This document shows, one piece after another, positions 1-16,626 of a DNA stretch of 16,626 bases. The DNA lies in assembly GCA_026391215.1 (NCBI GenBank), contig JAPLDX010000010.1, positions 1 to 16,626 on the forward strand, in the 5' to 3' direction. The stretch is from Bacteroidia bacterium (GTDB lineage: Bacteria; Bacteroidota; Bacteroidia; Bacteroidales; VadinHA17). The notes beneath the pieces are model-generated. The model had not been told where the DNA came from and did no database searches. It worked only from the letters and a program-made list of their open reading frames with translations. A program made the position numbers and the translations under genes. Each line of letters starts with the position of its first letter. The first letter of the stretch is position 1.

Positions 1-1329
1 AAATGCAAAATTCTGCACTTTTACCAAAGGGGCCATTTCAATTGTCTGCAGTGCTTCAGTCAGGTATCCATAGTACGTTGTCTTAAAGACGGACCAGTCC
101 TGATCTGTCATATCCCTGGGATAACCATTGGCAACTATAAGGTCCTTATCCCCGTCGTTGTCATAATCAGCAAACAGGGGTGACCAGCTCCATTCGGTTG
201 CCTGTATTCCCATCATCTGGCCCACCTCGCTGTAGGGAAGCATTTCACCGTTCATAAAGCCGTTATGAAGGTGGAGCATGTTCCTTACATACTGGTGTTC
301 AAAATTATATAGAGAATCAACCTGATAATGTAAATAGCCAAAGCCGGCTATCGTTTGTTTTCTTTTAGAATAATATTCGGGCAGCATATCAAGAGTGAAC
401 ATATCAGGGTTCCCATCATTATTGACATCAGCCATATCATTGCCCATGGAGGATCTTGACTGGTACGAAAAGTATTTCCTGATCTCGTTGCGAAAGGTTC
501 CGTCTCCCTGGTTAATATAAAGCAGGTCGTTGGTTATGAAGTCATTTGAAACATAAATATCAGGATACCCATCCTTGTTAACATCGCCCATTGCCAGTCC
601 AAGGCCAAATCCTTCATATTTAATTCCTGCCGGGATGGTAACATTAGTGAATTTCCTGTTTCCTTCATTACGATACAGCCTGTCATTATTGACTGCACTT
701 CCGTCTGTTATTCTTACCGCGAGTGAAGTGCTCATCCGCTGATTTACGGTGTTATTCAGAACATAAAGGTCAAGGTCGCCATCGTTGTCGTAATCAAAAA
801 ATGCCGCACCGGTTGATTGTCCGTCTTCTGCAATTCCGTATTCTTCAGCCATTTCCACATAAAATGGATCGCCATTTTCTCTGGTCCCCTTATTTACCCA
901 CAGCCTGTTTTTACATTTCTTTGGGTCCGGATTTGTAGTAGATGTAAGGTAGACATCCAGTTTTCTGTCGCTGTTTATATCGACAAGTGTTACACTGCTG
1001 TACCACTGATCATTTGTGAGCCCTTCAAAATTTGATGTAATGTCCCTGAATCTGAAATTGCCTTCATTAAGATATATCCGTGAAGAGACCTGGTTCCCTG
1101 CGAAAATTATGTCAGGTAGCCCGTCGTTGTTCAGGTCGCCTATTCCGACTCCTGCACCGTTATATATATATTCATAAGTAATTACATTAAAACTGTCAGA
1201 CTCTGATATTGTATTCTTAAAATCAATTCCGGTTTTTGAAGAATCCATCAGCCTGAATTTTGTCGAATCTTTACAGGAGGCAAATAATAAGGCTATTAAT
1301 AAAAGCGACGGCAGGAATAATTTTCTCAT
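1..1329 (-). CDS. VCBS/FG-GAP repeat lipoprotein (ASPIC/UnbV-type), C-terminal part beyond the left window edge
   Basis: Absent from the ORF track because it has no stop in the window. Hand translation from ATG at 1329 gives MRKLFLPSLLLIALLFASC-KDSTKF (lipobox FASC), TGIDFKNTI, YIYNGAGVGIGDLNNDGLPDI, further DxNxDG/DYDNDGD repeats, ending ...EMAPLVKVQNFAF at base 1 (443 codons). Confidence 0.9.
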   Translation of the reverse strand, partial: MRKLFLPSLLLIALLFASCKDSTKFRLMDSSKTGIDFKNTISESDSFNVITYEYIYNGAGVGIGDLNNDGLPDIIFAGNQVSSRIYLNEGNFRFRDITSNFEGLTNDQWYSSVTLVDINSDRKLDVYLTSTTNPDPKKCKNRLWVNKGTRENGDPFYVEMAEEYGIAEDGQSTGAAFFDYDNDGDLDLYVLNNTVNQRMSTSLAVRITDGSAVNNDRLYRNEGNRKFTNVTIPAGIKYEGFGLGLAMGDVNKDGYPDIYVSNDFITNDLLYINQGDGTFRNEIRKYFSYQSRSSMGNDMADVNNDGNPDMFTLDMLPEYYSKRKQTIAGFGYLHYQVDSLYNFEHQYVRNMLHLHNGFMNGEMLPYSEVGQMMGIQATEWSWSPLFADYDNDGDKDLIVANGYPRDMTDQDWSVFKTTYYGYLTEALQTIEMAPLVKVQNFAF

Positions 1330-1600: not shown

Positions 1601-1990
1601 CTAGATTATTTGATCAAGGAATTGTCTAATCTTGTTAAGTACTTTTTCCGTATTTTCTAATTCCTCATTCCTGATTCTTAGTACATGAATACCTATTTCT
1701 TCCAGCTCTGAATCTCTGAACTCATCATATTCATCTGTTTTATCATGAATAGGACCATCCAGTTCTAATACAGCTTTCTTTTCAAAACAAAAGAAATCGG
1801 CAATGAAGTAATTATACCTTTTCAGATTACCCTTATAAAGGATAACATGCTGCCTTAGGAATTTGTATCCTGATAGTTTTCTTCCTCTCAGTTCGTTCCA
1901 AATTAATTTCTCAGACTCAGTCATATTGATCCTGAGTTCCCTTGCTTGTCTTTCTATCCCAGCAAAATCAAATTTTTTAATCTTAGACAT
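1601..1990 (-). CDS. DUF559 family endonuclease-domain protein (Vsr-like, PD-(D/E)xK fold)
   Basis: Motifs ARELRINMTESEKLIWNELR, YKFLRQH, FIADFFC, LELDGPIH, YDEFRD, GIHVLRIRN match the DUF559 pattern. ATG at 1990 is preferred to the GTG at 2005 used by the track because a promoter-like element ends at 2010. Confidence 0.9.
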   Translation of the reverse strand: MSKIKKFDFAGIERQARELRINMTESEKLIWNELRGRKLSGYKFLRQHVILYKGNLKRYNYFIADFFCFEKKAVLELDGPIHDKTDEYDEFRDSELEEIGIHVLRIRNEELENTEKVLNKIRQFLDQII

Positions 1991-2009
1991 ACTTATAGAA
2001 TCCACAGCC

Positions 2010-2156: not shown

Positions 2157-3911
2157 TTATCTGTTCTGAACCAGAACACCAGGCATCAGGTCGAGCTGAC
2201 GCTGAGGTATCGGGAAAGTAACATCTTCAGGACCAACAACTGCAGCTCCCTGCAGGTACATTGACCCATTTTTGCCCCATGGTGTGGTTGTTTCATAGGC
2301 AAGAACCCTGTTAAGTTCAGCTACCGTAATTCCCCACCTGTTAAGGTCGAAATACCTGTGGCCTTCCATTCCGAGTTCAAGTTTTCTTTCCATGTACAGA
2401 GCTTTGCGTGCATTAGCCTGCGTGTCAAAAGGATATCCGGATGTTGGATACTCATTAATAACGTAGTTTGCAGCATTTGTTACACCATCGGCTTCTTTAA
2501 CCCATCCTGCAGGAATGGCAGCCCTGGCACGAACAAGGTTGACATTTATACGTGCATTAGTCAGGTCGTTGGTTTCAATCTGGCATTCTGCAAGAAGCAG
2601 GAGAACATCAGCAAAGCGGATCATACGATAACCATTTGCGGTCAATCCGTTGGTCCAGTTGGTGATATCGGTAAGAACTCTTTCCTGGGATTTCTTGTAA
2701 ACCTGTTTCTTGTTTGAATATGGCCCGGCATAAGTCTGGTCACGAACCCAGTCTGAGCCCGTAACGATTCCCCAGTCAAAATAAGGGATACCTCTTCTTC
2801 CAACTGCCCAGTCAAGTCTCGGGTCCAGTTCTCCAGCATCCTCAACAAAAGGATCGGCAAAATTTAGTCCCTGGTCACTCTTCACAGGATCAAGATTATA
2901 TGTTCCGTCAAGCAGTGGTAATCCACCGACAGTTCTGAATGAATTCACGAATTCCTGAGTAGGCTGGAAGAATCCGCAGCATCCGCCCGGAGAGCCGCCG
3001 CCCTTGTAAGGGAAATTCAGGATCAGGCCGTATCCTGCGTTATATCCGCCACTACCGTCATTTACGGAATACTGAACTGTATAAACATTTTCCGATACGT
3101 TCCTGTTTTCAATCACCCATAGATCACCGTAGTTTGGATAAAGTGCAAGTTTGTCACCCACTGAGTTTGTTCCGCTGGTTTTTACCTCTTGCAGAAGTGT
3201 AAGTGCACCAGCATAGTCATGGTTCATCTGCATCATTGCTTTTGCAAGGATCACCTGGCTTACGGTTTTGTTAAATCTTCCGATCTGCTCCATGTCATTC
3301 GGCAGTTTTGTCCCTTCTGTCATATCATCGAGAATTTTCTGCCTGATATCCGCTGTATTAGCAGTGGCCTTAGCATCAGTTTTTTCATCAATATATGGCA
3401 CTTTTTCCCACATTCTCCATGCTTCAAAATGGTACCATCCGCGAAGCGCTCTTGCCTGCATGATTAAATTGTCTGCCTTGTCCTGTGTAAGTTTGCCGTC
3501 TGCGACAGCCTTGTTGGCAACAAGAATAACATTATTGCACCTGGAAACAGCCTCATAAACCTCTCTCCACTTTGTATTAAGGTAAGGATTGGTAGATGTT
3601 TCCGTAAAGCTCTGCATCGGATTGATATCCGGCTGGTCGCCGGCATCCGTCCCTTTGTTTGCTATCATTCCCCTGATATCGCCATATACCCAGTTTTCAG
3701 ATGCTGAATTCCATGAGTAGTCATTGCCAAGACCATCGAGCACAGCATAGGCTCCTATCAGCAGGCCATTGACGCCGGTTTCGGTTCCCATCACAGATGC
3801 ATCAAGAGCCCCGTTCGGAGTGATATTAAGGAAGTCTTCTTTGCATGCACCCACTATTCCAAGTACAGCAATTATTACAATCAGTAAAATATGATTCTTT
3901 TTCATATTCAT
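2157..3911 (-). CDS. susD: RagB/SusD family nutrient-uptake outer-membrane lipoprotein
   Basis: Lipobox VLGIVGAC-KEDFL; ARALRGWYHF, IRFADVLLLLAE, VNLVRARA, ERKLELGMEGHRYFDLNRWG, FPIPQRQLD; 19 nt downstream of the susC-like gene. Start may be 3905. The symbol denotes family, not orthology. Confidence 0.93.
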   Translation of the reverse strand: MNMKKNHILLIVIIAVLGIVGACKEDFLNITPNGALDASVMGTETGVNGLLIGAYAVLDGLGNDYSWNSASENWVYGDIRGMIANKGTDAGDQPDINPMQSFTETSTNPYLNTKWREVYEAVSRCNNVILVANKAVADGKLTQDKADNLIMQARALRGWYHFEAWRMWEKVPYIDEKTDAKATANTADIRQKILDDMTEGTKLPNDMEQIGRFNKTVSQVILAKAMMQMNHDYAGALTLLQEVKTSGTNSVGDKLALYPNYGDLWVIENRNVSENVYTVQYSVNDGSGGYNAGYGLILNFPYKGGGSPGGCCGFFQPTQEFVNSFRTVGGLPLLDGTYNLDPVKSDQGLNFADPFVEDAGELDPRLDWAVGRRGIPYFDWGIVTGSDWVRDQTYAGPYSNKKQVYKKSQERVLTDITNWTNGLTANGYRMIRFADVLLLLAECQIETNDLTNARINVNLVRARAAIPAGWVKEADGVTNAANYVINEYPTSGYPFDTQANARKALYMERKLELGMEGHRYFDLNRWGITVAELNRVLAYETTTPWGKNGSMYLQGAAVVGPEDVTFPIPQRQLDLMPGVLVQNR

Positions 3912-3930
3912 AGTATATTAATATTATTAG

Positions 3931-6900
3931 TTAAAGGACAAAATTAAGTCCGAAGATTACTTGCTTGACATTTGGATAGCGACCTGTGTCAGAACCGAAT
4001 GCGCGGTCGTCCCCTCCAAGTTCAGGATCCAGTCCGGAATACTTGCTGATCGTGAAGAGATTAACGGTCTGTACATAAACCCTCAGAGATTTCACATTGA
4101 TCTTATTCAACAGACTTGCCGGCAGTGTATAGCCAAGCTGCAGATTTTTCATCCTCAGGTAGGAGCCCTTCTCCATATAGTAGCTGCAAACCTGTGTGTT
4201 GGTTGAGAAGTTGGATGAGTTTGTAGCCATAGGAACATCCGTATTGGTCCTGTCAGGAGTCCAGCTATCATAAAGCAGTCTTTTACCCTTCTGCCCCTGG
4301 AATGAAGGCCAGAAATCGATCCACCACTTGTTCCAGTTGAAGATGTCATTCCCCTGTGAGCCATACATGTATGTGTTCAGGTCTAATCCCTTATAGTTAA
4401 ATGTAAGGTTAAGCCCGTAAGTGAAAGCCGGGTTGGGATCGCCTATGAATGTCCTGTCGGCAGTGGTTATTGCACCATCACCGTTAACATCCTCATACCT
4501 GAAGAATCCGGGAGCTGCACCATCTTGTGTGGGAGCTTCAGCCACTTCAGCGTCACTCTGGAATAATCCCATTACGTTGTAGCCAAAGAATGCTGACATC
4601 GGGTGTCCGACCATGTTCCTGTTGGCTTCATTAATCCTGGTAGTTCCACCTCCCTGGTCAAAGTAATTTACACCTTCAGCAATCTTTGTTATCTCATTTT
4701 TATATGTTGTCAATTCGGCATTTGCATTAAAGCCAAGATCGCCAAAGTTATCCCTGTAGCCAAGCTCAAAGTCAAAACCTGAGTTCTTCATCTCAGCAAT
4801 ATTAATATAAGGTGATGTTGCTGTTCCTGCCTGTCCGGGATTTTCGAGCTGATATAAAAGATCCTTGGTCTGTTTGAGGTACCAGTCAAGTACAAAATTA
4901 AACTTATCGTTTAGGAAAGCTCCTTCAACACCAATATCAGTTGTAACGTTGGTTTCCCATTTTGCATCAGCATTACCGACACGTGTCGGGCGGAATCCCT
5001 GTGTTGATCCTGTCATTGCTCCTGCTATGTCATAATATGATGTAGCTGCTTCACCTCCGTACAGGTTGAACTGGTTCGCGGTCGAAAGGGCCATTTGGTT
5101 ACCCATCATACCCCATGAACCTCTTATTTTCAGATCTGAAAGAAATGAGAGGCTTTCGAGGAATGGCTCGTCGCCAATACGCCATGCAGCTGAAAATGCC
5201 GGGAAAATACCATAGCGGGTATCAGGTCCGAACTTTGATGAACCATCACGGCGGACAGTGGCGCTTAACAGGTACTTGTTCCTGAAACCATAGTCAACTT
5301 TTCCAAATATGGATACCAGTGCAGTAGGTGTATAATAGCTGGAATTTGCATAGTTAACAGAGGCTCCGTTTGTCAGTGTACGATAACTGAGGTCATTTGA
5401 GAAATAGCCGCCTCTTTGTGCTGCCAGTTCACGACCCATACCGGTTTTAATTGCTTCATATCCGGCAACTGCAGTTATCTTATGATCTCCGAATACCTTA
5501 TCATAGGTAAGCTGGTTCGTCCAGATCCAGTTGGAGCCCCAGTATGCATTTTCGCCGTAGCTGGCAGTATTGGTATTTTCAGCATTTTCGTATGTAGCAA
5601 AGTTGAAGCCAACACCATATCCGGAATAGAATCCGCCTCCAAAGCTTGATCTGAAGTTCAATCCGTTAAGGATCTTTATATCAAGATACATATTACCCAG
5701 TACATTAATGCTCTGATCCCAGTTATCCTTACCTCTTGTAAGGCCTGCAAGCGTATTGGTGCTGTTCCCGAGCCTTCCGGCAATTCCGGTGCCGCCCCAG
5801 TCGCCTGCTTTCCATGTACGTGTTGCACCTACATAGTCATCACCTGTCCACACTGCAGGTATTATTGATTGTAACCTGTAACCTGATGCGTTGATTGCGC
5901 TGTTTTCGCCATCGATATTTGCACCATTGCCTCTTTGGTATGCCACCGTCAGATTCTCTCCTATCTTCACCCTGTCTTTCAGGATAGTGAATTCAGAATT
6001 GAACCGTCCTCTGGCTCTTTTAGAATAGTTATATTTTACAATTCCATCTTCATCGAGATAGCCAAAACCTGCAAAAAACTTTGCTCTGTCTGTACCACTC
6101 GAAAAGGTAAGGTCATGATTTGTCTTTATCGCATTGTCGGTTACTTCATCGTACCAGTCGGTGCTTTTTCCAGAATACCAGACCGGCATTGTGGGGCTTG
6201 CCTGGGATGAAGGCCCGTAAACCGGGTGTGTTTCAGTTATACCGTCATTGGCATAAACAAGCCATTGAAGCTGTGCATATTCTTCAGCAGTCAGGAGGTC
6301 TGGTGTAGGACCTACTCCCGGCAACTGTACACCTGTGTACATGTCATAGGTCACCTTGACACCTGAAGAACCTCTCTTGGTATTAACAACGATAACACCG
6401 TTTGATGCTCTTGATCCGTAGACCGAAGCGGCACCAGCGTCTTTCAGTACAACCATTGTTTCAACGTCGTTCGGGTTCAGGTAAGAAATATCAGTGGTAG
6501 GAACACCGTCAACGATGTAGAGCGGATCATTTTCCTCAAATGATGAGAATCCCCTGATCCGTACTTTTGCTGCCTGACCCGGTCTTCCGTCCCCGAGTAC
6601 TGTAACGCCTGATGCACGTCCCTGAAGCTGGCTCGTCAGCTGGCCTGTAGGAATAGCGGTCAGTTCAGCTGTTTCAACAACGCCTACTGAACCGGTAAGA
6701 TCCCTCTTTCTTTGTGTGGAATAACCTGTGACCACAACTTCCTGGAGGGCCAGTACATCTGAAACGAGGGTTAGATCTATTACTGCCTGTGAACCGACTG
6801 CAACTTGCTGTGTTACATAACCGATAGATGAAAACAAAAGTACTGATGTTGGACCCGGCACTTTCAAAGTGTAGACTCCGTTTACATCAGATATTGCTCC

Positions 6901-7062
6901 GATCGTAGTTCCCTGGACCGTAACGTTTACGCCCGGCAGAGGTCCATCCTCAGCAGAAACTCTCCCGGTGATGGTCCTTTCCTGGCCGTACAAAAGACCA
7001 ACAGAAAGAACCATGCTGAATACAAACAGCGCAACGCGCCGCACATTGGTAGAAATTTGCAT
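3931..7062 (-). CDS. susC: SusC/RagA family TonB-dependent transporter
   Basis: N-terminal CarboxypepD_reg-like segment (LPGVNVTVQGT), EVVVTGY, plug motifs DPLYIVDG and LKDAGAASVYGSRASNGVIVVNTKRG, barrel motifs RRDGSSKFG and KWET, C-terminal GLNFVL. ATG at 7062 is preferred to TTG at 7068. The symbol denotes family only. Confidence 0.95.
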   Translation of the reverse strand: MQISTNVRRVALFVFSMVLSVGLLYGQERTITGRVSAEDGPLPGVNVTVQGTTIGAISDVNGVYTLKVPGPTSVLLFSSIGYVTQQVAVGSQAVIDLTLVSDVLALQEVVVTGYSTQRKRDLTGSVGVVETAELTAIPTGQLTSQLQGRASGVTVLGDGRPGQAAKVRIRGFSSFEENDPLYIVDGVPTTDISYLNPNDVETMVVLKDAGAASVYGSRASNGVIVVNTKRGSSGVKVTYDMYTGVQLPGVGPTPDLLTAEEYAQLQWLVYANDGITETHPVYGPSSQASPTMPVWYSGKSTDWYDEVTDNAIKTNHDLTFSSGTDRAKFFAGFGYLDEDGIVKYNYSKRARGRFNSEFTILKDRVKIGENLTVAYQRGNGANIDGENSAINASGYRLQSIIPAVWTGDDYVGATRTWKAGDWGGTGIAGRLGNSTNTLAGLTRGKDNWDQSINVLGNMYLDIKILNGLNFRSSFGGGFYSGYGVGFNFATYENAENTNTASYGENAYWGSNWIWTNQLTYDKVFGDHKITAVAGYEAIKTGMGRELAAQRGGYFSNDLSYRTLTNGASVNYANSSYYTPTALVSIFGKVDYGFRNKYLLSATVRRDGSSKFGPDTRYGIFPAFSAAWRIGDEPFLESLSFLSDLKIRGSWGMMGNQMALSTANQFNLYGGEAATSYYDIAGAMTGSTQGFRPTRVGNADAKWETNVTTDIGVEGAFLNDKFNFVLDWYLKQTKDLLYQLENPGQAGTATSPYINIAEMKNSGFDFELGYRDNFGDLGFNANAELTTYKNEITKIAEGVNYFDQGGGTTRINEANRNMVGHPMSAFFGYNVMGLFQSDAEVAEAPTQDGAAPGFFRYEDVNGDGAITTADRTFIGDPNPAFTYGLNLTFNYKGLDLNTYMYGSQGNDIFNWNKWWIDFWPSFQGQKGKRLLYDSWTPDRTNTDVPMATNSSNFSTNTQVCSYYMEKGSYLRMKNLQLGYTLPASLLNKINVKSLRVYVQTVNLFTISKYSGLDPELGGDDRAFGSDTGRYPNVKQVIFGLNFVL

Positions 7063-7128
7063 AGTCAAATTTTTTAAGGTTAGTTAGGTTCTAATATCAA
7101 ATTTTAGCAATCTTCCGCTAAAATCTAT

Positions 7129-7354: not shown

Positions 7355-7386
7355 TTTGCATGCTGATACTATGTTTATTACTTTTG
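7355..7386 (+). promoter_or_regulatory. Sigma70 promoter of the two-component operon
   Basis: TTTG (7355-7358), 20-nt spacer, TACTTTTG (7379-7386): exact Bacteroidota consensus, ending 6 nt before the ATG at 7393. Confidence 0.7.
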
Positions 7387-7392
7387 ACAATT

Positions 7393-8070
7393 ATGAAGAT
7401 ATTGATAGTTGAAGATGAACCCAAAGTGGCTTCATTTATAAAAAAGGGACTTGAGGAAAACCATTTTGAGGCAGATACCGCTTATGACGGATTATCTGCA
7501 GAGAAGCTTGCCCGTCAATATAAATACGACCTCTATATTCTTGATCTCATAATCCCGGGCATCAGCGGTCTTGATCTTTGCAGGAAGCTTAAAGTATTGA
7601 ATCCGAATACCCCCGTACTGATGCTTACAGCACTGGGTACTACTGATGATAAGCTTGCCGGTTTCGATGCGGGTGCGGATGATTACCTTGTCAAACCTTT
7701 TGAATTCAGGGAGCTGCTTGCCAGGGTAAAAGTTCTTCTGAAGAAAATCAATCAGCCTCTTGAAACAGTTAACAGGCTTGTTGCAGGTGACCTGGAACTT
7801 GATCTTGATAAAAAAACTGCCCGGAGGGGAAGCACACTTATTGACCTGACCGCCAGGGAGTTTTCCTTGCTTGAATACTTCATGAGGAACAGCGGGCGGG
7901 TGCTTTCACGAAACGACATTGCCGAAAAAGTATGGGATGTGAATTTTGATTTCGGCACAAATATCGTTGACGTATATGTTAACTTCCTGAGAAAAAAAAT
8001 TGACAAGGGATTTGATAAGAAGCTGATACATACTAAAATTGGATTCGGATATATTTTTGGAGAATTCTAA
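7393..8070 (+). CDS. OmpR/PhoB family response regulator (CusR/CzcR/ArlR-like)
   Basis: MKILIVEDE, phospho-acceptor region ILDLIIPG, LMLTA, GADDYLVKPF, winged helix LTAREFSLL...VDVYVNFLRKK...HTKIGFGY. Start moved from 7360 to 7393, the canonical receiver N-terminus, downstream of the promoter. Confidence 0.95.
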   Translation: MKILIVEDEPKVASFIKKGLEENHFEADTAYDGLSAEKLARQYKYDLYILDLIIPGISGLDLCRKLKVLNPNTPVLMLTALGTTDDKLAGFDAGADDYLVKPFEFRELLARVKVLLKKINQPLETVNRLVAGDLELDLDKKTARRGSTLIDLTAREFSLLEYFMRNSGRVLSRNDIAEKVWDVNFDFGTNIVDVYVNFLRKKIDKGFDKKLIHTKIGFGYIFGEF

Positions 8071-8071
8071 T

Positions 8072-9442
8072 ATGCAGATAAGGACAAGATTAACGTTGCA
8101 GTTTCTCCTCCTCGGCGGGTTGATTATGATAATTGCATCTGCTGCAACTTATTATTCCTCAGCCACTTTCCGTAAAGATGACTTTTATAACCGGCTTACA
8201 AACAGGGCCTGGAGTGTCACTAAAATGTTCATTGACACCTACGATCATGATGCCGAAATGGTAAAGAGGATGGAAAGGAATAATCCCCTCAGGTTGCATA
8301 ATGAGAAGATAACAGTGCTCGATTTCCGAAATGAGATATTATACACATCGGATGTTGATGGGGAAATAGAGATCAGAAACGATGTCCTTGAACGTGTAAG
8401 ATTAAGTGAAAGAGTAAAATACAGGCAGGGAGAATATGAAGTGCTGGGAGTATTATATACGTCGGTGAATAGCAGGTTTGTTGTTATTGCCGCCGCAACC
8501 GATACAGACGGATTTTCACACCTCAATATGTTGAGGATAATAATGATTGTCGTTTCCTTTGTCAGCCTTATCTTGTTTTTTATAGCCGGGTGGTTTTATT
8601 CCGGACGTGCAATGAAACCAATATCCAATATGGTGAAAGAGGTTGATGATATTTCAATAACCAGCCTGAATCTGAGGGTTCCTGAAGGCAACGGAACAGA
8701 TGAGATCGGAAGGCTCGCGAAGACATTCAACAAGATGCTTGAACGGCTCGAAATCTCATTTTCGATGCAGAAAAACTTCATTGCTAATGCATCACATGAA
8801 TTGAGAACGCCGCTTACATCCATAAACGGCCAGCTCGAAGTTCTGATGATGAAGGACCGGTCAACTGAAGAATACAAATCCTCACTTGCTTCCGTTCTTG
8901 ATGATATAAGATCCCTTATTAACCTGTCAAACAGACTGTTGTTGATAGCACGCACCAGCGCTGAGGGTCCCGTGAATTTCAGCAATAAGATCCGCCTTGA
9001 TGAAATTCTCTGGCAGTCGCGCGATGAGATGAAAAAGTTTAATGATGATTATCGCATCAATATCTCTATGGATGAATTACTTACTGACTCTGACCAGATG
9101 ATCGTAACAGGTGATGAGTTCCTTATAAAAACAGCCGTTTCAAATATCATTGAAAATGCATGCAAGTATTCTCCTGATCATACGGTTGACATAAGGATCC
9201 AGCATCCCGGAGAATGGATTGAGGTGGTTTTCAAAGACAGTGGTATAGGCATTTCTGAGGAGGATATAGTTAAGGTGTTTGAGCCGTTTTACCGTGGCGC
9301 AAATGCTCATTCTGCTTCAGGCAGCGGCATTGGGCTCCCTCTGGTCAGCCAGATTATCAAAAATCACAATGGCGAAATAAAACTCACATCGTTTCTCGGC
9401 AAGGGGACTACTGTGACTATAAAGCTGCCTTCGGCGTCATAA
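8072..9442 (+). CDS. HAMP-containing membrane sensor histidine kinase
   Basis: Two hydrophobic helices around a periplasmic domain, HAMP EIGRLAKTFNKM, H-box ASHELRTPL, N-box NIIENACKYS, G1 DSGIGI, F-box FEPFYR, G2 GSGIGL. ATG at 8072 lies 1 nt after the regulator stop. Confidence 0.95.
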   Translation: MQIRTRLTLQFLLLGGLIMIIASAATYYSSATFRKDDFYNRLTNRAWSVTKMFIDTYDHDAEMVKRMERNNPLRLHNEKITVLDFRNEILYTSDVDGEIEIRNDVLERVRLSERVKYRQGEYEVLGVLYTSVNSRFVVIAAATDTDGFSHLNMLRIIMIVVSFVSLILFFIAGWFYSGRAMKPISNMVKEVDDISITSLNLRVPEGNGTDEIGRLAKTFNKMLERLEISFSMQKNFIANASHELRTPLTSINGQLEVLMMKDRSTEEYKSSLASVLDDIRSLINLSNRLLLIARTSAEGPVNFSNKIRLDEILWQSRDEMKKFNDDYRINISMDELLTDSDQMIVTGDEFLIKTAVSNIIENACKYSPDHTVDIRIQHPGEWIEVVFKDSGIGISEEDIVKVFEPFYRGANAHSASGSGIGLPLVSQIIKNHNGEIKLTSFLGKGTTVTIKLPSAS

Positions 9443-9648: not shown

Positions 9649-9706
9649 AAATGGAACTGAAGATAAAAGTTAAAAACGATAATTGCGCTACACTCTAACT
9701 TTCCCC

Positions 9707-11416
9707 ATGAAAAATAGTTTATTTTCTCATTTATTGAAAGTACGTCTGGAACGGACGATACATTGCACTTATGCTGTTTACATGTCTGTCATGCTTGTTT
9801 TACTTGCCGGATGCCGGTCAGATAATAAAACAGCTGACCGGAATAAACATGGCGCCCCTCCTGCTGCCAGCAATGATTTCTTCCAGGAGATCGGATCTGA
9901 GATCGGAATAGATTTCATTCATTCCATTGGCGATAATGAGCTGACCAATATTATTGAATCAAGCGGTGGCGGTTCAGCTTTTTTCGATTATGACCAGGAC
10001 GGGTTTATGGACCTTTATATCTGCAGCGGCACCTGGATTGAAGGATTCAGCTCCGGTGAAAAACCTGAACAGCTGCCGGGAAACCATCTATATAGAAACC
10101 GTGGCGATGGTACATTTGAAGATGTTACCAGAAAAGCAGGTGTCAGCGGACCCTGGTACAGCATGGGCGTGACTGTAAGTGATTACAATAATGATGGTTA
10201 CCCTGATATATACCTGTGCAATTACGGCCCGAATGTCCTTCTTGAAAATAATGGCAACGGATCATTCACTGATGTCACGAAGAAATCAAATACGGCCGGA
10301 GGCAATGAATGCAGCATCGGAGCCGTATGGTTAGATTATGATAATGACGGACTACTCGATCTGTACGTGGGAAATTACCTGGCTTTTGACCCTGAGTACA
10401 AATATTTTTATGCCCCTGACGGTTTTCCCGGACCTATGGCTTATGACAGCCAGAAGGATGTTCTGTACCATAATAAAGGTGAAGGGGTCTTTGAAGATGT
10501 AACTGAAAGGATGGGCCTCAACGACCAGGACGGAAGGGCTATGGGTGTCGGGGCTATCGATTATGACGAAGATGGATATGTTGATATATATGTAGCAAAT
10601 GACCATACCCTGAACTACCTGTATCATAACAATGAAGGCAAAAGCTTTACTGACAGGGGTACAATGTCGGGAACAGCTTTCAGCCAGGGTGGCGAAGCAA
10701 CGGTAAGCATGTCGGTGGATTTTGCCGATTATAATAATGACAGTCTGCTCGATATGTTTGTATCCGACGACACATATTGCTCTCTTTACAGGAACGATGG
10801 CAACGGAACATATTCTGATATGTCCTATCCATCAGGACTGGCAGTGGCATGTGCCCAGTTTGTAGGATGGTCATCATCATTTATTGATTATGACAATGAC
10901 GGGGATGTTGATATTTTCAAAGCAAACGGCGCTCTGAAACATCTGTACGGACAGGAGGATCAACTGTTTGAGAATGTCGGGGGAGAAAAATTCGTGGATG
11001 TATCGCTTGAGATGGGAGAATATTTTAGTAAGGAATATGTCGGGCGCGGAGCCTGTATGGGGGACTATGACAATGACGGAGACATGGATATACTTGTTGT
11101 GAACCTTAATGATAAAACCAGGTTTTTACGCAATAATAAAGGGAACCAGAATAACTGGATATCGCTTAACCTGACAGGAACTACAAGCAATCGTGACGGA
11201 ATCGGTGCAAGGATCAAGATCAGCGCAGGCGGCAAGGAGCAGATAGCCCAGAAGAAAGGCACGACAGGTTATCTTTCACAGAATGATCCGCGGGTCCATT
11301 TCGGACTGGCTGAAAATAAAATGATTGAAAAGATTGAAATAAAATGGCCTTCAGGAAAGATACAGACACTTGAAAATGTTAAAGCCAATCAGATCCTTGA
11401 AATTAAAGAACCTTAA
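9707..11416 (+). CDS. CRTAC1-family FG-GAP beta-propeller lipoprotein with C-terminal ASPIC/UnbV domain
   Basis: Lipobox LLAGC; seven DYD/NxDG-type Ca-binding repeats (DYDQDG, DYNNDG, DYDNDG, DYDEDG, DYNNDS, DYDNDG, DYDNDG); C-terminal SNRDGIGAR...GYLSQNDPRVHFGL...IKWPSG. Start uncertain: TTG 9683, ATG 9707 or ATG 9782. Confidence 0.9.
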   Translation: MKNSLFSHLLKVRLERTIHCTYAVYMSVMLVLLAGCRSDNKTADRNKHGAPPAASNDFFQEIGSEIGIDFIHSIGDNELTNIIESSGGGSAFFDYDQDGFMDLYICSGTWIEGFSSGEKPEQLPGNHLYRNRGDGTFEDVTRKAGVSGPWYSMGVTVSDYNNDGYPDIYLCNYGPNVLLENNGNGSFTDVTKKSNTAGGNECSIGAVWLDYDNDGLLDLYVGNYLAFDPEYKYFYAPDGFPGPMAYDSQKDVLYHNKGEGVFEDVTERMGLNDQDGRAMGVGAIDYDEDGYVDIYVANDHTLNYLYHNNEGKSFTDRGTMSGTAFSQGGEATVSMSVDFADYNNDSLLDMFVSDDTYCSLYRNDGNGTYSDMSYPSGLAVACAQFVGWSSSFIDYDNDGDVDIFKANGALKHLYGQEDQLFENVGGEKFVDVSLEMGEYFSKEYVGRGACMGDYDNDGDMDILVVNLNDKTRFLRNNKGNQNNWISLNLTGTTSNRDGIGARIKISAGGKEQIAQKKGTTGYLSQNDPRVHFGLAENKMIEKIEIKWPSGKIQTLENVKANQILEIKEP

Positions 11417-11428
11417 CTACCTCGCTTG

Positions 11429-12847
11429 ATGAATTATAAAAGGATTGCCAATATACTTGCTATAAATCTTTCGTGTATATTACTATTGTCGTGTAAAGGC
11501 ACGTCACATAATAATTTGCTTATCATCACCCGGGTACCTGGGAATTTTCAGAATCAGGAGTTTATTACAGGGGAATCCTGGCGTTATGTCACTGGAGCCC
11601 AGATTGCAGTTCTTAATCCTGAAAAGTCAGGATCAATAAAGGTTCTCTCTGACAAGTTTTATTCAGCATGTTGCCCCGAGATCTCCTATGACGGTGAAAG
11701 AATTCTTTTTGCCGCTCAGCAGAAAGAAGGCGATCTCTGGCAAATATTTGAGATGGAGATTAAAAACCTTAAAACCAGTAGGCTCACATCCTTAAAGGAT
11801 AACTGTTTCGACCCGGTTTATCTTCCTTCCGGACGCGTAGCATTTACAGGATATATTGATAACGATACTGTTAAATCAGCCTATTGCCTTTTTTCATGTA
11901 AACCCGATGGCTCTGACACCAGGCAGCTTACCTTTGGTCCGTTTTCCTCATATGCCACAGCTGTTCTGAAAGATGGCCGCCTGCTGACAATAAACCGTCA
12001 GTTGCTTCCTGACAAAAGGGATCCTATGCTTATGGTTCTACGTCCTGATGGAACAAAAGCGGATATTTTCTATAAAGGTCCGGATGGAACTAAGATAATC
12101 AGTCGCGGACGGGAGACAGCAGATGGCAAAATTCTGTTTATTGAAACAGAAAACGGCAATGCTCCTGAAGGAAATCTGATCTCTGTCAGTTATAACCGCC
12201 CTCTGCATACCAGGATCAACCTTAGTTCTGAAATCGATGGCAGCTTTAATTCCGTTCTGCCTATGCAGTCAGGAAATCTGTTAGTATCCTGGCGTAAATC
12301 AGATTCGGACCATTATTCACTTTATGAATTTGATCCGGCAGAAAAAGCTCCTGGTAAAATTCTTTATGATGATCCGGAATATAATGTGCTGGATGTTATT
12401 GAAGCTGTTAAATATGAAAGACCAAAAAAGCTGCCAAGCGAGGTGGACTACCAGGTAAAAACCGGATTGCTCCTCTGCCAGGACATCAATTACATGGGAT
12501 TTCAGTCTGCCGGAAAGGACGCAGGCATAAAAACATCACGGATTGAAGTAATAGGTATTGATTCAACATATGGTGTCGTTCAGGTTGAAGGAGACGGATC
12601 GTTTTATCTTAAAGTAATTGCCGATACTCCATTTCAGATCCGGACTCTTGATGACAAGGGTAATGTTCTCAACGGACCCAGTTCATGGATATGGCTTCGC
12701 CCAAATGAAAGGCGCGGATGCGTAGGATGTCATGAGGATCCGGAAATAGTTCCTGAAAACAGAGTCTCTTTTGCCGTAAGAAAGGCACCAGTGATAATAC
12801 CAGTACATATAACTGAAGTCAGGGAAAAAATCGTGGAGCTTGAATGA
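11429..12847 (+). CDS. HzsA-related lipoprotein: TolB/PD40-like propeller plus hydrazine synthase alpha middle-domain-like region with one c-type haem motif
   Basis: Lipobox LLSC; PEISYDGERILFA, FDPVYLPSGRVAF, PDGSDTRQLTF repeats; GVVQVEGDGSFYLKVIADTPFQIRTLDDKG...SWIWLRPNERRGCVGCHE, with CxxCH at 12719-12733. Confidence 0.75.
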   Translation: MNYKRIANILAINLSCILLLSCKGTSHNNLLIITRVPGNFQNQEFITGESWRYVTGAQIAVLNPEKSGSIKVLSDKFYSACCPEISYDGERILFAAQQKEGDLWQIFEMEIKNLKTSRLTSLKDNCFDPVYLPSGRVAFTGYIDNDTVKSAYCLFSCKPDGSDTRQLTFGPFSSYATAVLKDGRLLTINRQLLPDKRDPMLMVLRPDGTKADIFYKGPDGTKIISRGRETADGKILFIETENGNAPEGNLISVSYNRPLHTRINLSSEIDGSFNSVLPMQSGNLLVSWRKSDSDHYSLYEFDPAEKAPGKILYDDPEYNVLDVIEAVKYERPKKLPSEVDYQVKTGLLLCQDINYMGFQSAGKDAGIKTSRIEVIGIDSTYGVVQVEGDGSFYLKVIADTPFQIRTLDDKGNVLNGPSSWIWLRPNERRGCVGCHEDPEIVPENRVSFAVRKAPVIIPVHITEVREKIVELE

Positions 12848-14889
12848 GTATGAATAAGATTTATAAAAAAATAAGCATAACTGCCGGAGTTATTATTATT
12901 CTGGGAGCAATCACATATCCTCCCTTCCACCGCTGGAGCAGGTCGCACGTTAATTATCTGACTGCCACGGAAGATCATCCTCTGAATTGCCTGTCGTGTC
13001 ATTTGCCTAATCAGAAAGATGGGATTATTGCGGAAATGGTGAACGCAGATTATTATTCACCTTTTAAACTGGCAATATCCGATGATGGGAAAAAGCTGTT
13101 TGCTGTTGCTGAAGAAGGCAATTCGTTACTGATCATTGATACTGAAAAAAAAAAGGTTTTGGATGAAATCCCGGTTGGTATCCGCCCTCACAGTGTAGTG
13201 ATTGATAATGACAAAAACATAGCTTATGTGACCAACCAATGGTCTGATAATGTATCGGTTATAGACCTGAACAATAATAGTGTAGAATATACACTTAAAA
13301 CAGGGAATGGCCCTGCCGGAATTGAGCTGAGCTCAGATAAGCAATTCCTGTATGTGGTGAACTCATACAGCTCCGATCTGTCAGTGTTTGACCTTGCTTC
13401 CGGAAGAGAGCAGAAAAGGCTGACAACCGGAAATAATCCCACAGGAATAACAATGTCTCCAGATAAAAGCAAGCTTTATATAACGAGCCGGCGTGCACTT
13501 ATTGCACCCTACGGAGATCCCGTAATTTGCCAGCTTTCAGTTGTTAATGACAACAACCAGAGGATCGCTGAATACAGGGATGTGGAATCAGCTTATATGA
13601 TGGAAAACATTGCCTTTACACCCGAAGGCGACCTGGCACTGATCCCGCTTATAAGACCAAAAAACCTTGTTCCTTCAATCCAGGTGGAAAGAGGTTTTAT
13701 TATGACCAACGGCATCGGAATAATAGAGCAGAAACCTGACGGAAGAATATTACAGCTGCTGCTTGATGAGCCAAATAAATATTATGCTGATCCCTTCGAC
13801 ATCGAGATAACTCCTGACGGAAAGAGGGCTTTCGTGTCACATGGGGGTGTTGATTGTATATCAGTCATTGACCTTGACTCCCTCAGGGCATTGATAGCCG
13901 TCACCTCGTCTGAAATGCTTGATCACTTTTCCAATCACCTGGGGATCAGCACCAGGTTCGTCATAAAGAGGATCCCTACAGGGGCGAATCCGAAAGGCAT
14001 GGTCCTCTCCCCTGACGGCAAGCTTCTATATGTTGCCGAGCATCTTGAAGACAGGATCGCAGTCATAAATACCGAAAGCCTTGAAACAGTAAACACAATC
14101 GACCTTGGCGGTCCGCGGCGGATAACTGTTGCACGCCACGGGCGCAGGCTGCTTAATAGTGCCGGCCATACTTTTCAGACACAATATTCATGCTTTACCT
14201 GCCATCCCGACACTCATGAAGATGGCCTGGTATATAACATGGCTTCAAAGGATATGGGGCGAAACCTGACCAACACTCAGTCACTGCGCAATATCGGCGA
14301 TACACCTCCCTATAAATGGAACGGCAAGAACCAGACTGTATACAAACAGGACGGCTTGCGCTTTTCAACGGTGCTTACAAGGACAGAAGCTTTCTCATAT
14401 AAAGAGCTTGATGCAATAACAGCATATATTATGACAGGGATTCCCAATCCGCCCAACCTTCTTCATAATCCGGCAGGAGAACTTACGCCGGCTCAGCAGC
14501 GGGGAAAGGCTATCTTTGAACGGACAGTCGATTTTAAAGGGAACGAAATACCTGAAAAGAATCGTTGTGTCACCTGCCACCCTGCTCCATATTTTACAAA
14601 CAAACAGATGTTTGATGTTGGGACACTTGCTTCATCAGATGATTCAATCCTTTTCGATACACCGCACCTTAATAATGTATTTGCTTCACCTCCATATCTT
14701 CATGACGGACGTGCTGCAACACTCGAGGAGATATGGACTCTGTATGGCAAAACAGAACAGCATGGTATTGTGAACGATCTGACCAAAATACAGCTTAATG
14801 AACTTATTGAATATCTGAAATCTTTAAGGGACCCGGCATACGAAACAAAAAGAACTGAAAAACAACTCGCATCAATGTCACATAATTAA
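12844..14889 (+). CDS. YVTN/YncE-type beta-propeller fused to a di-haem cytochrome c peroxidase/MauG-like domain, with an extra N-terminal CxxCH
   Basis: N-terminal hydrophobic anchor; CLSCH (12988-13002); propeller repeats (IPVGIRPHSV, AYVTNQWSDNVSVID, TGNGPAGI, TGANPKGM); CFTCH (14191-14205), NTQSLRNIGDTPPYKWNG, RGKAIF, CVTCH (14566-14580), DTPHLNNVFASPPYLHDG. ATGA overlap with the upstream stop. Confidence 0.85.
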   Translation: MSMNKIYKKISITAGVIIILGAITYPPFHRWSRSHVNYLTATEDHPLNCLSCHLPNQKDGIIAEMVNADYYSPFKLAISDDGKKLFAVAEEGNSLLIIDTEKKKVLDEIPVGIRPHSVVIDNDKNIAYVTNQWSDNVSVIDLNNNSVEYTLKTGNGPAGIELSSDKQFLYVVNSYSSDLSVFDLASGREQKRLTTGNNPTGITMSPDKSKLYITSRRALIAPYGDPVICQLSVVNDNNQRIAEYRDVESAYMMENIAFTPEGDLALIPLIRPKNLVPSIQVERGFIMTNGIGIIEQKPDGRILQLLLDEPNKYYADPFDIEITPDGKRAFVSHGGVDCISVIDLDSLRALIAVTSSEMLDHFSNHLGISTRFVIKRIPTGANPKGMVLSPDGKLLYVAEHLEDRIAVINTESLETVNTIDLGGPRRITVARHGRRLLNSAGHTFQTQYSCFTCHPDTHEDGLVYNMASKDMGRNLTNTQSLRNIGDTPPYKWNGKNQTVYKQDGLRFSTVLTRTEAFSYKELDAITAYIMTGIPNPPNLLHNPAGELTPAQQRGKAIFERTVDFKGNEIPEKNRCVTCHPAPYFTNKQMFDVGTLASSDDSILFDTPHLNNVFASPPYLHDGRAATLEEIWTLYGKTEQHGIVNDLTKIQLNELIEYLKSLRDPAYETKRTEKQLASMSHN

Positions 14890-14900
14890 TAAGAATATCT

Positions 14901-16097
14901 ATGAAGAACCTGATAAAAACCCGTTCCTTTAAAAATATATTATATGCTATTGTACTGATAGTTATTGCAGGAATATTGATTTTTATAAAGCCCGGCAATA
15001 CCGGTGACAATCAATTGCCTGTTAAAGAAACGGTTGTCAGCAATAATGAGAATACCTCTGAAGTTACGCCGGGAAGCAGTTCTGGTGTCATTAAGGAAGC
15101 AAAGGCAATGCCTGTTTACGGTAACTGGCGTAATTTCACAACAAAGGACGGGCTTCCTTCAGATAAGGCTTATACCGTCCGCATTGACGGTGATCGCGTG
15201 CTCGTAGGCACTCACGGCGGTATGGCAGTATATGAAAAAGGAAAATGGCGCACATATACAACAGAGGACGGCCTTGCACATAACGGGGTCGTTTCTATTG
15301 ATGTATCCAGGCTTACCGGGGATGTCTGGATTGCAACTTTCGCAGGACTTAACCGCTGGTCAGGAGGTAAATTTGAAACCTTTAACCAGTTCAACAGCGG
15401 TCTGCCCAACGACCTGGTATACAATGTTTTTTGTGACGGGAAAGATATATGGGTAGCCACCGGCGGGGGTGCAGGTCATTACGATACTTTCACCAAAGAA
15501 TGGGAGATATTCACGGAAATGAATGCCCCGATGCATGAACCATGGTCCTATGCCGTTTCAGCCGGTGATGGGAAAGTATGGATCGCCGCCTGGGGAGGAG
15601 GAGTGATAGAATATACTTATGAGACAAAACATTTCAGGGATTATGTTGACCCTGACGGCTTCATGGAAATAGACCTCCAGCCTGACGATGGTATTATTCA
15701 TGATATAACAACCGCCACATCTTATGCAGACAGTATTTTGTGGGTTTCAACTTATTTTGGGATGAGCCGCTATGACGGCAAAAACTGGAAAGGCTACTTT
15801 AAAGAAGACAGCGGCCTTGCCAGCAATTTCATTAACTTCCTGAGAGCTGAAGGTAAAGTTGTATTTGTCTGCTGTGATAACGGGCTGAGTACTTTTGACG
15901 GGACAACCTGGGTTACATATTTAAAAGATGACAACAGTGAAAACGGAAAAGCTATAATAACCAATGGTACAGAAAAGAAAGAAGTCCCTTTATCGCCGTC
16001 TATTGCCCATAATTTTATTATAGGCGTGGATGCTGAAAATGATGTCCTCTGGGTTGCTACTTCAAAAGGTGTAAGCCGCGGGGAAATAATAAGGTAG
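14901..16097 (+). CDS. Stand-alone two-component-regulator-propeller (Reg_prop) repeat protein, membrane-anchored or exported
   Basis: N-terminal hydrophobic helix, low-complexity linker, repeats FTTKDGLPSD, YTTEDGLAHN, FNSGLPND, EDSGLASN with WIAT/WVAT strands; no kinase domain. Confidence 0.8.
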   Translation: MKNLIKTRSFKNILYAIVLIVIAGILIFIKPGNTGDNQLPVKETVVSNNENTSEVTPGSSSGVIKEAKAMPVYGNWRNFTTKDGLPSDKAYTVRIDGDRVLVGTHGGMAVYEKGKWRTYTTEDGLAHNGVVSIDVSRLTGDVWIATFAGLNRWSGGKFETFNQFNSGLPNDLVYNVFCDGKDIWVATGGGAGHYDTFTKEWEIFTEMNAPMHEPWSYAVSAGDGKVWIAAWGGGVIEYTYETKHFRDYVDPDGFMEIDLQPDDGIIHDITTATSYADSILWVSTYFGMSRYDGKNWKGYFKEDSGLASNFINFLRAEGKVVFVCCDNGLSTFDGTTWVTYLKDDNSENGKAIITNGTEKKEVPLSPSIAHNFIIGVDAENDVLWVATSKGVSRGEIIR

Positions 16098-16116
16098 TTG
16101 CTGATTTTTATAAAAA

Positions 16117-16626
16117 ATGAAAAGAATTATGAAACCGCTGCTTAGGATATTGACGAGTATTTTCCTGCTTATTCTGATGTCGCTTTCAATTGTAAAGGGA
16201 CAGGCAAAACCGTCCAATTATGGAAATATTCCTGATGAACTGGTTGCTTATGATGAATACCAGAAAGCCTATAAATATCATTTTCTTGAACCGGTTCAAT
16301 TCTATGGAGCCGGGCGGGAGAAGCTTCCTCCCGCTGATCTGAAAGAAGTAAGAATCGGATTCCTGGGACCGCTGGAAGGTTCAATTATTTCTTCACTGGG
16401 TAAACAAATGTTACAGGGAGCTGAACTGGGGATAGAAGAGGCTAATAAAAAAGGAGGATATAAAGGAATTCCGTTTAAAATAATGATACACAATGATGTG
16501 GGATTGTGGGGAGCTGCTGCAAATGAAGTGGTGAAAATGGACGATGAGAAAGTATGGGCATGGCTGGGTACAATAGATGATATTAACTCACATGTCGCCA
16601 TAAGGGCAACATTGAAACTGGAAATC
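16117..16626 (+). CDS. LivJ/branched-chain amino acid ABC substrate-binding-like protein (type I periplasmic binding fold), truncated by the right window edge
   Basis: Absent from the ORF track. Hand translation: MKRIMKPLLRILTSIFLLILMSLSIVKG-QAK (signal peptide)...EVRIGFLGPLEGS...GKQMLQGAELGIEEANKKGGYKGIPF...HND...VWAWLGTIDDINSHVAIR; open for 170 codons to the edge. Confidence 0.85.
   Translation, partial: MKRIMKPLLRILTSIFLLILMSLSIVKGQAKPSNYGNIPDELVAYDEYQKAYKYHFLEPVQFYGAGREKLPPADLKEVRIGFLGPLEGSIISSLGKQMLQGAELGIEEANKKGGYKGIPFKIMIHNDVGLWGAAANEVVKMDDEKVWAWLGTIDDINSHVAIRATLKLEI

Follow-up and report, generated by a model that had tools for sequence, protein, structure and literature searches.

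We analysed the complete contig JAPLDX010000010.1 (contig C16, 16,626 bases, referred to below as the window) of a Bacteroidia bacterium of the Bacteroidales lineage VadinHA17 (assembly GCA_026391215.1; 3.39 Mb in 135 contigs, 98.9% complete). From position 9683 onwards its plus strand carries five close-packed, co-oriented genes, and two of these, genes 2 and 3, are by sequence and predicted fold true but distant relatives of the anammox hydrazine synthase (HZS), with matches far beyond chance. As judged from gene order and conserved residues, the locus is an HZS-homologue operon of clade III, a type already described in 2025 (Hagglund et al. 2025, Genome Biol Evol, PMC12758564), and the predicted complex is not one that makes hydrazine for energy. 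The five genes are the following:

Gene 1, 9683..11416, plus strand: FG-GAP / ASPIC-UnbV (CRTAC1-like) beta-propeller lipoprotein, 577 aa (TTG start at 9683) or 569 aa (ATG start at 9707).
Gene 2, 11426..12847, plus strand: HZS-alpha-like lipoprotein of 473 aa, with a six-blade TolB-like propeller, an HZS_alpha middle domain and one CxxCH motif.
Gene 3, 12844..14889, plus strand: fused HZS-beta-gamma-like protein of 681 aa, with an N-terminal membrane helix and three CxxCH motifs.
Gene 4, 14901..16097, plus strand: Reg_prop-type propeller of 398 aa, with an N-terminal membrane helix.
Gene 5, 16117..16626, plus strand: Peripla_BP_6 (HAAT-type amino-acid/amide) binding protein, first 170 aa, open at the contig end.

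An earlier note on this DNA had described five co-oriented genes spaced by 12, -4, 11 and 19 nt, and the list of open reading frames (ORFs) gives the same gaps when ATG starts are used (gene 2 may start at TTG 11426 or at ATG 11429; the two possible starts of gene 1 are given above). Export of the five products is suggested by features read by eye: genes 1 and 2 each have a lipobox, genes 3 and 4 an N-terminal helix and gene 5 a signal peptide.

The kinship of gene 2 with the alpha subunit was recognised in three ways. A hidden Markov model (HMM) search with Pfam HZS_alpha, one of the checks proposed in the earlier note, placed the domain on residues 375-437 at 66.8 bits (cut-off 26.6; E 2.5e-18). 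By sequence, the protein matched the alpha chain of the Kuenenia enzyme (PDB 5c2v_A) with an E-value of 6e-23, in three stretches within chain residues 56-561 of 782. Finally, its predicted model (mean predicted confidence, pLDDT, of 85.2) found 5c2v_A as the best Foldseek match (E 1.8e-23, TMq 0.76, identity 21%), the second-ranked match being TolB (3e-10). The description of gene 2 in the earlier note, a propeller followed by an HZS-alpha-like domain with a CxxCH motif, agrees with these matches. The score obtained with the NCBIfam profile hydrazine_alpha, 111.3 bits, is below the equivalog cut-off of 800. Note that the HZS_alpha domain on its own is not a marker of an HZS-like complex, since it is also present in Bacteroidota proteins outside the operon; it scored above the Pfam cut-off in Bacteroides thetaiotaomicron, used as a control genome.

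Gene 2 is a short alpha-like protein: its single CxxCH (C432/C435/H436) is followed by the stop 37 residues later, the protein ends at residue 473, and the third domain, with the bis-His haem alpha-II, is absent. H436 aligns with alpha His587 (5c2v_A chain residue 560), and the positions invariant in the 35 aligned sequences include C127, W421, R429, R430, C432, C435 and H436, as well as the lipobox cysteine, C23. In HZS, alpha Tyr591 ligates the iron of haem alpha-I and His587 is diverted to a zinc site; a tyrosine equivalent to Tyr591 was found neither in the 37-residue tail of gene 2 nor, as a conserved column after the CxxCH, in the 35 sequences.

Gene 3 is built, in this order, of an N-terminal membrane helix, an extra CxxCH, a seven-blade YVTN propeller (approximately residues 66-420) and a di-haem gamma-like domain. 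The propeller and the di-haem domain had been seen in the earlier note, which missed one of the three CxxCH motifs; these lie at residues 49, 450 and 575 and are all invariant in 34 of 34 sequences, the additional one (C49/C52/H53) being located directly after the N-terminal hydrophobic helix. By sequence, residues 66-410, i.e. the entire propeller, matched 5c2v_B (E 1.5e-50), and residues 424-661 matched 5c2v_C (E 2.6e-16). As for gene 2, the NCBIfam scores are all below the cut-offs (hydrazine_BC, 248.1 against 1250; beta, 222.1 against 560; gamma, 75.5 against 625). The other profile proposed for the HMM check, Pfam CCP_MauG (PF03150), was above its cut-off (32.6 bits against 25.6), over residues 572-631 only, which correspond to profile positions 21-78 of 149. 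Profiled alone, the C-terminal domain scored 87 bits with 5c2v_C, compared to 31 with MbnH (6e1c) and 28 with cytochrome c peroxidase (CcP).

The predicted model of gene 3 (mean pLDDT 69) is good in the propeller and falls below 50 at residues 440-546 and 576-644. Its best Foldseek match was 5c2v_B (E 1.7e-33, TMt 0.90, identity 28%), and the matches rest on the propeller only. Because the di-haem domain has a pLDDT below 50, no active-site geometry, pocket or tunnel is readable in this model. The haem-site residues were located by counting positions on the printed alignment, with a numbering offset of 39 for 5c2v_C derived by hand from Cys102/Cys105/His106. On this basis, W492, invariant in 34 of 34 sequences, aligns with gamma His144 (chain residue 105), and gamma Cys165 (chain residue 126), which in HZS makes a third covalent bond to haem gamma-I, falls within a five-residue insert of 5c2v_C that has no counterpart in gene 3 in the HMMER alignment. 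Nor did profile alignments to 3o5c, 1iqc and 6qkn reveal in gene 3 any counterpart to the CcP 'TM' stretch, and hence to the distal Met of CcP or the Tyr of MauG.

The earlier note had also proposed a multimer prediction for genes 2 and 3. We used residues 66-662 of gene 3 and residues 50-450 of gene 2, with three controls and in three runs: an interface was predicted with an ipSAE of 0.87, versus 0.00 for the best control, and the runs had at least 96% of contacts in common, with a partner pLDDT of at least 85. The ipSAE mark was attained by 58 of 80 solved complexes and by 2 of 110 mismatched pairs. Since the homologous complex, 5C2V, is already solved, the score is to be read as likeness to 5C2V and not as proof of binding. 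Conservation is higher in the predicted interface than elsewhere, both in gene 2 (0.67 versus 0.43, a difference reached by 0 of 10000 permutations) and in gene 3 (0.75 versus 0.65, reached by 369 of 10000); this measure is independent of the confidence score of the model, yet the residue set itself was chosen by the model. A nearly invariant stretch of gene 3, RPKNLVPSIQVERG, aligns with PKNWLPVCEAENG of HZS-beta, and we take it to be the sixth-blade loop described by Hagglund et al., the numbering of which could not be confirmed. It is likely that the products of genes 2 and 3 form a membrane-tethered periplasmic complex with four c-type haems, in which the HZS plan of two haem sites joined across a propeller interface would be kept.

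Hydrazine or N-N chemistry in this complex is unlikely because it has no Tyr591, no haem alpha-II and no gamma Cys165, and carries a Trp at the position of gamma His144. N-N bond chemistry, one of the activities suggested in the earlier note, thus loses ground, whereas the wider proposal of an uncharacterised envelope redox complex still stands as a reading of these sequences. A quite different view would be that the locus encodes a genuine hydrazine synthase and that its host is an unrecognised anammox-type organism, which is how such genes are read in PMC11828985, where they are counted as hzsA in 16 Bacteroidota genomes, with transcripts. The common fold, the predicted alpha/beta-gamma complex and the retained haem alpha-I and gamma motifs are all consistent with it. 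We nevertheless regard it as extremely improbable: the equivalog scores are far too low (111 versus 800 and 248 versus 1250), no HAO/HDH-type multihaem protein was seen in the genome (PF13447 gave no match, its control being silent in all genomes, and a CxxCH scan found no octahaem ORF), and the cluster also occurs in Maribacter polysiphoniae, an aerobe. The residues listed above, including the Cys165 cross-link, speak against it as well, an argument also found in PMC12758564: there, Tyr591 is reported missing and His144 replaced by Trp in such homologues, which were concluded to be unable to make hydrazine.

To place the two genes in their context, we scanned one genome per species and found 106 stretches with a relative of gene 3, of which 80 were kept; the neighbour counts below refer to loci with enough flank. 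All 80 are labelled Bacteroidota and most come from uncultured Bacteroidales, a cultured carrier being the marine flavobacterium Maribacter polysiphoniae DSM 23514. The gene-neighbourhood survey suggested in the earlier note revealed a strict association: gene 2 lies upstream of gene 3 in 70/70 loci, gene 1 upstream of the alpha-like gene in 61/61 and gene 4 after gene 3 in 71/71. None of the three outcomes that the earlier note had named as refuting its reading (no HZS_alpha match, no predicted contact between the two proteins, no conserved co-occurrence) was observed. Further along come a first binding protein (62/62), a DAHP synthase (52/60) and a second binding protein (55/57), together with a Rid-like protein (41/69) and a large TPR-FG-GAP-ASPIC protein (41/56). 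The window is thereby shown to hold the core of a conserved, putative Bacteroidota operon with the order FG-GAP/ASPIC lipoprotein, alpha-like, beta-gamma-like, Reg_prop propeller, (Rid-like), binding protein 1, DAHP synthase, binding protein 2, (TPR-FG-GAP).

Within the genus of the window, 16 of the 24 other genomes had a match to gene 2 at E <= 0.001, 15 of them strong (E <= 1e-120). Of 400 other genomes drawn evenly from the phylum, only 2 had a gene 3 relative at E <= 1e-50. A profile built from the 35 alpha-like sequences retrieved 856 clusters at E <= 1e-30 and 7498 at E <= 1e-10 among 50%-identity clusters (1.84 billion representatives).

Separately, the alpha-like or the beta-gamma-like frame is short or split in ten loci (L012, L016, L046, L055, L073, L079, L080, L081, L082 and L087), with, for example, 274 aa instead of about 476, or 435-555 aa instead of about 680; either frameshifts in the sequencing or decay of the copies may be the cause.

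Gene 1 matched Pfam FG-GAP_3 (172.6 bits, in six stretches) and UnbV_ASPIC (83.4 bits), in agreement with the CRTAC-type propeller previously read from it, and has a lipobox, LLAGC, recognised by eye. Two ligand-binding proteins had been assigned to the window: this holds for gene 5, which matched Peripla_BP_6 at 38.3 bits, whereas no result points to ligand binding by gene 4, a Reg_prop-type propeller (23.9 bits, cut-off 20.4). Closest to gene 4 in the Atlas are clusters of Reg_prop 'hypothetical proteins' from Bacteroidota and Acidobacteriota, with scores from 0.98 to 0.94. A full-length homologue of gene 5 (440 aa, locus L010) matched Leu/Ile/Val-type binding proteins in the PDB (best E 2.1e-24), and the closest solved relatives of the binding proteins of the cluster bind amino acids or amides. 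A search of the genome for LivH/M-type permeases (PF02653), the control of which was positive in 12 of 14 genomes, gave no match, and the only Peripla_BP_6 genes of the genome are those of the cluster; the two binding proteins would therefore bind a ligand for the system itself and not for uptake.

That the operon continues past the window, as the earlier note had supposed, is borne out in the relatives and probably also in the same genome. On contig C45 (locus L091) lie binding protein 1, starting at about residue 50, the DAHP synthase, binding protein 2 and the TPR-FG-GAP protein, and the window contig probably joins C45. Against the join, the 111-residue overlap with gene 5 is only 90% identical, and the first ~260 bases of C45 belong to an unrelated dehydrogenase-like fragment (bases 1-312) that passes directly, with a change of frame, into the middle of binding protein 1 (264 onward). 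An erroneous join in the assembly, or strain variation, may account for this.

With 408.9 bits (cut-off 267.75), the DAHP synthase linked to the cluster is recognised as a true type I-beta enzyme; it is one of three PF00793 genes in the genome. The Rid-like protein of the relatives is weakly chorismatase-like; with the L010 protein as query, no Rid-like gene was found in the genome of the window. Neither the DAHP synthase nor the Rid-like protein has a signal peptide at its N-terminus, so that their link to a periplasmic chemistry is indirect. The lack of a signal peptide, together with the failure to find the gene in this genome, led us to set aside an exported RidA hydrolysing periplasmic imines.

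The redox equipment of the genome was then considered. It includes cytochrome bd and a fused CcsBA haem-attachment protein, the latter answering the suggestion in the earlier note that cytochrome c maturation genes be looked for. NrfA, Sec-type NosZ and NirK were not found (NirS was not searched), nor was a NOR or haem-copper oxidase (PF00115). A canonical CcP was not found either by a genome search with PF03150 at E <= 0.001; since this query did not retrieve gene 3 either, the absence means only 'not found with the PF03150 query'. In addition to genes 2 and 3, a scan for CxxCH motifs (at least two CxxCH or an ORF longer than 250 aa) retrieved a 7-haem c7/c3-like protein and two fusions of NapC/NirT and FGE modules.

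Two of these finds deserve a description of their own. On contig C9 (locus L095:3129-11412, minus strand), the gene for the fused CcsBA (920 aa) stands in a row with those for a cytochrome b561-type membrane protein, the 7-haem c7/c3-like cytochrome, an acyl-CoA dehydrogenase and a CCG/4Fe-4S protein; the row could represent a redox module of the membrane and a possible electron partner of gene 3. The two fusions (C132:1476-2996, locus L096, and C123:1-1401) have an N-terminal NapC/NirT tetrahaem quinol-dehydrogenase module joined to an FGE-sulfatase (SUMF1-like) domain; the next genes on C132 encode a GFO/IDH/MocA oxidoreductase, a xylose-isomerase-like TIM barrel and a BNR protein.

Tentatively, and well short of even confidence, we propose that the complex is a reductase, fed by quinol, that acts on a small oxidant. 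Its electrons, supplied by the menaquinol pool or by a membrane cytochrome, would be taken up by the N-terminal haem of gene 3, close to the membrane; from there they would travel over the gamma-II-like haem and Trp492 to the gamma-I-like haem, which would reduce a small diffusible oxidant: H2O2 is slightly favoured, NO or hydroxylamine being possible. The alpha-like haem would handle the product, or else a second ligand delivered by the transporter-less binding proteins, and the co-transcribed DAHP synthase would keep aromatic biosynthesis running when oxidant stress inactivates the housekeeping enzyme. The slight preference for H2O2 comes from the YhjA-like layout of gene 3 (see below), from the lack of an ordinary CcP in the PF03150 search and from the fact that DAHP synthase is a known H2O2 target (PMC8115020); its peroxide sensitivity would explain a spare copy in the operon. 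The quinol-fed reading in general is further favoured by the cytochrome bd and CcsBA of the genome, by the blank PF00115 search for NOR or haem-copper oxidase, by the type I-beta identity of the linked DAHP synthase and by the closeness of the upstream sensor pair to the CopS/CusS group.

Several observations weigh against this proposal. None of the alpha-like, FG-GAP, Reg_prop and binding proteins would be required by a plain peroxidase, and the last three are kept in 61/61, 71/71 and 62/62 loci. In the gamma-like domain, the score for HZS-gamma (87 bits) exceeds that for any CcP (28 bits); the domain lacks the conserved CcP Met, and its invariant His640, which we infer to be a haem ligand, aligns with the 'MHG' His of HZS-gamma. 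The score of the predicted complex may stem from the model's memory of 5C2V. The two-component pair encoded upstream does not reach the subfamily cut-offs and is present at only about half of the loci, and the DAHP synthase could equally supply an aromatic precursor. Moreover, Maribacter polysiphoniae is aerobic, and ordinary peroxide defences are expected in such an organism.

The similarity to HZS-gamma raises the possibility of a two-step detoxifier of nitrogen oxides without N-N coupling, in which NO would be reduced to hydroxylamine at the gamma-I-like haem, and hydroxylamine channelled to the alpha-like haem, there to be reduced or disproportionated to ammonium. In the scheme of Dietl et al. 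2015, which PMC12758564 summarises, HZS-gamma does reduce NO to hydroxylamine, and the gamma-like domain is most similar to it, including the bis-His-type conservation of His640; the stretch of gene 3 aligned to PKNWLPVCEAENG is highly conserved and lies in the predicted interface (residues 271-285). We find this quite unlikely, however: gamma Cys165 is absent and gamma His144 is a Trp, no electron wire to the single haem of gene 2 is evident because haem alpha-II is lost, and the genome yielded no NirK, NrfA, Sec-type NosZ or NOR/haem-copper oxidase, NirS being outside the search. Less likely still, and in our opinion very doubtful, is a periplasmic N-N or N-O bond-forming enzyme of the two-site, tunnel-linked HZS design, in which hydroxylamine from the gamma-I-like haem would be coupled to an amine or amino acid brought by the binding proteins. 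If this were true, the complex could also serve as a living model of the enzyme that gave rise to hydrazine synthase.

The Trp at the place of gamma His144 and the binding proteins can also be accommodated by an oxidative enzyme of the MauG or haem-peroxygenase type. Here, the di-haem domain, charged by H2O2 or O2, would oxidise the ligand of the binding proteins (amino-acid-like or aromatic) or a residue of a partner such as the FG-GAP/ASPIC protein, and the linked DAHP synthase and Rid-like protein would belong to the same aromatic or amino-acid metabolism. In the alignment, and in keeping with PMC12758564, Trp492 occupies the position of the hole-hopping Trp of CcP and MauG; matches to MbnH and MauG models and to 6e1c exist and are weak. 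The closest solved relatives of the binding proteins take amino acids or amides, the PF02653 permease was not found and Peripla_BP_6 is limited to the cluster, which points to a ligand that is not for uptake; the FG-GAP protein is present in 61/61 loci, the DAHP synthase linked in 52/60 and the Rid or weakly chorismatase-like protein in 41/69. By contrast, the ligands typical of MauG (Tyr) and of CcP (Met) are not conserved, and we identified no protein that could be a substrate through a conserved target residue; in addition, signal peptides are lacking in the DAHP synthase and the Rid-like protein, and the membrane helix followed by an N-terminal haem resembles an electron inlet and not a free peroxide-driven enzyme. 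We therefore hold this oxidative role to be possible and rather unlikely, keep the quinol-fed reductase as our provisional proposal, and assign the remaining probability to something else.

Upstream of the operon, the window contains the following features:

Response regulator, 7360-8070, plus strand: OmpR-type partner of the sensor kinase, a frequent upstream neighbour.
Sensor kinase, 8039-9442, plus strand: CopS-CusS-like, a frequent upstream neighbour.
SusC, 3931-7068, minus strand: SusC/RagA (829.9 bits), divergent from the operon.
SusD, 2157-3911, minus strand: divergent from the operon.
DUF559 gene, 1601-2005, minus strand: 134 aa, between the SusD gene and the cut FG-GAP gene.
FG-GAP protein, 1-1329, minus strand: cut by the contig edge.

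A sensor kinase is found upstream in 31/56 loci and a response regulator in 29/54. The best NCBIfam matches of the pair are cztR_silR_copR (229.9 bits, cut-off 279) and cztS_silS_copS (198.6 bits, cut-off 292.6), both below the cut-offs. A copper link, which the CopS/CusS-like sensor and the MbnH-like matches might have suggested, was set aside: the scores are under the subfamily cut-offs, and the MbnH match reflects the shared CcP core only. SusC and SusD were treated as neighbours and not as part of the operon because a divergent SusC homologue (at least 50% identity) lies upstream in only 13/53 loci.

The DUF559 gene has copies 68-73% identical on contigs C111, C29 and C3, and more distant ones on five further contigs. 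FG-GAP/ASPIC paralogues form tandem arrays on C31 (~30.7-66.3 kb), C38 (~65-76 kb), C133, C113 and C111: tblastn queries with gene 1 and the TPR-FG-GAP protein gave dozens of separate matches at 25-35% identity, about 20 of them consecutive on C31, and the FG-GAP gene cut by the window edge has three closer copies (40-44% identity) on C111.

These results bear on a current practice, as metagenome surveys already count such genes as 'hzsA' and hence as anammox potential (PMC11828985). The present case, which lacks the catalytic residues and whose genome yielded no HAO-type, Nir or Nor genes in our searches, argues against counting genes of this kind as anammox markers. It also offers an entry point into a large family of haem enzymes: by its size, the alpha-like family would represent a considerable blind spot in envelope redox biology, and it appears to be the nearest living relative of a unique enzyme. 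The cultured carrier Maribacter polysiphoniae DSM 23514, the two binding proteins and the sensor pair provide testable handles.

How does the locus compare with known systems? The closest is clade III of the co-localised HZS homologues, which Hagglund et al. sorted into clades I to IV. As described in PMC12758564, this clade has an FG-GAP gene followed by an alpha-like gene without haem alpha-II and a fused beta-gamma gene with one extra haem motif, two binding-protein genes lying downstream. The window locus has the same order (FG-GAP, alpha, beta-gamma), the same short alpha with one CxxCH in gene 2, the same extra haem motif among the three CxxCH of gene 3, the same Trp for gamma His144 and the same lack of Tyr591; of the two downstream binding proteins, the first begins as gene 5 at 16117, and both are on C45 in the same genome. 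Relative to that description there is no difference in kind, and the novelty that the earlier note implied for an alpha plus beta-gamma layout outside anammox bacteria is forestalled by this publication.

Two other reports deal with similar genes. In cold seeps, PMC11828985 (Nat Commun 2025) described 'hzsA' with a fused beta-gamma partner in 16 Bacteroidota genomes, detected transcripts and inferred anammox potential, the most abundant hzsA contig being assigned to Bacteroidales. Its HzsA has an HZS_alpha domain, an N-terminal Sec signal, a fused beta-gamma partner and an AlphaFold-Multimer complex, a description that fits genes 2 and 3 equally well; the likeness is one of description, and both the residue evidence given here and PMC12758564 speak against the anammox reading. 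In Phycisphaerae UBA1845 (PMC10732223, FEMS Microbiol Lett 2023), an hzsA-like gene lies directly upstream of a fused hzsBC-like gene, and a wider HZS-like family with other substrates was proposed. These bacteria differ from ours by their phylum and by the presence of hao/hox and nxr-type genes, and the account given of them describes no FG-GAP or binding-protein context.

Among solved structures, the HZS of Kuenenia stuttgartiensis (PDB 5C2V) is the best match of genes 2 and 3 in both sequence and fold, and the haem alpha-I, gamma-I and gamma-II motifs are retained here. By contrast, gene 2 has 473 residues versus 782 in the solved chain, the third domain and haem alpha-II being absent. The Tyr591 ligand and the Cys165 cross-link are both lacking, and Trp stands in place of His144. 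Gene 3 carries a membrane helix and one additional haem at its N-terminus, the genes stand in reverse order, alpha leading, and no anammox gene set was found in the genome of the window.

Finally, the non-classical tri-haem quinol peroxidases YhjA, QPO and PerC combine, according to PMC10301912, a CcP-type di-haem unit, in which a Trp forms the bridge, with a membrane helix and one more haem at the N-terminus. Gene 3 resembles them as far as the layout is concerned, which may point to a similar way of working; it differs in that a seven-blade propeller is inserted between the N-terminal haem and the di-haem unit, in that this unit is nearer to HZS-gamma than to CcP, and in that the CcP Met is not conserved. 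The main-text account of clade III in PMC12758564 makes no mention of the Reg_prop gene, the linked DAHP synthase, the Rid-like gene or the transporter-less binding proteins. What is new here is the absence of a transporter partner for the binding proteins in the genome searched, the linkage of a cytoplasmic DAHP synthase in 52/60 loci, the layout of gene 3 shared with the tri-haem quinol peroxidases, and a sensor pair that, with scores below the cut-offs, is nearest to the CopS/CusS group.

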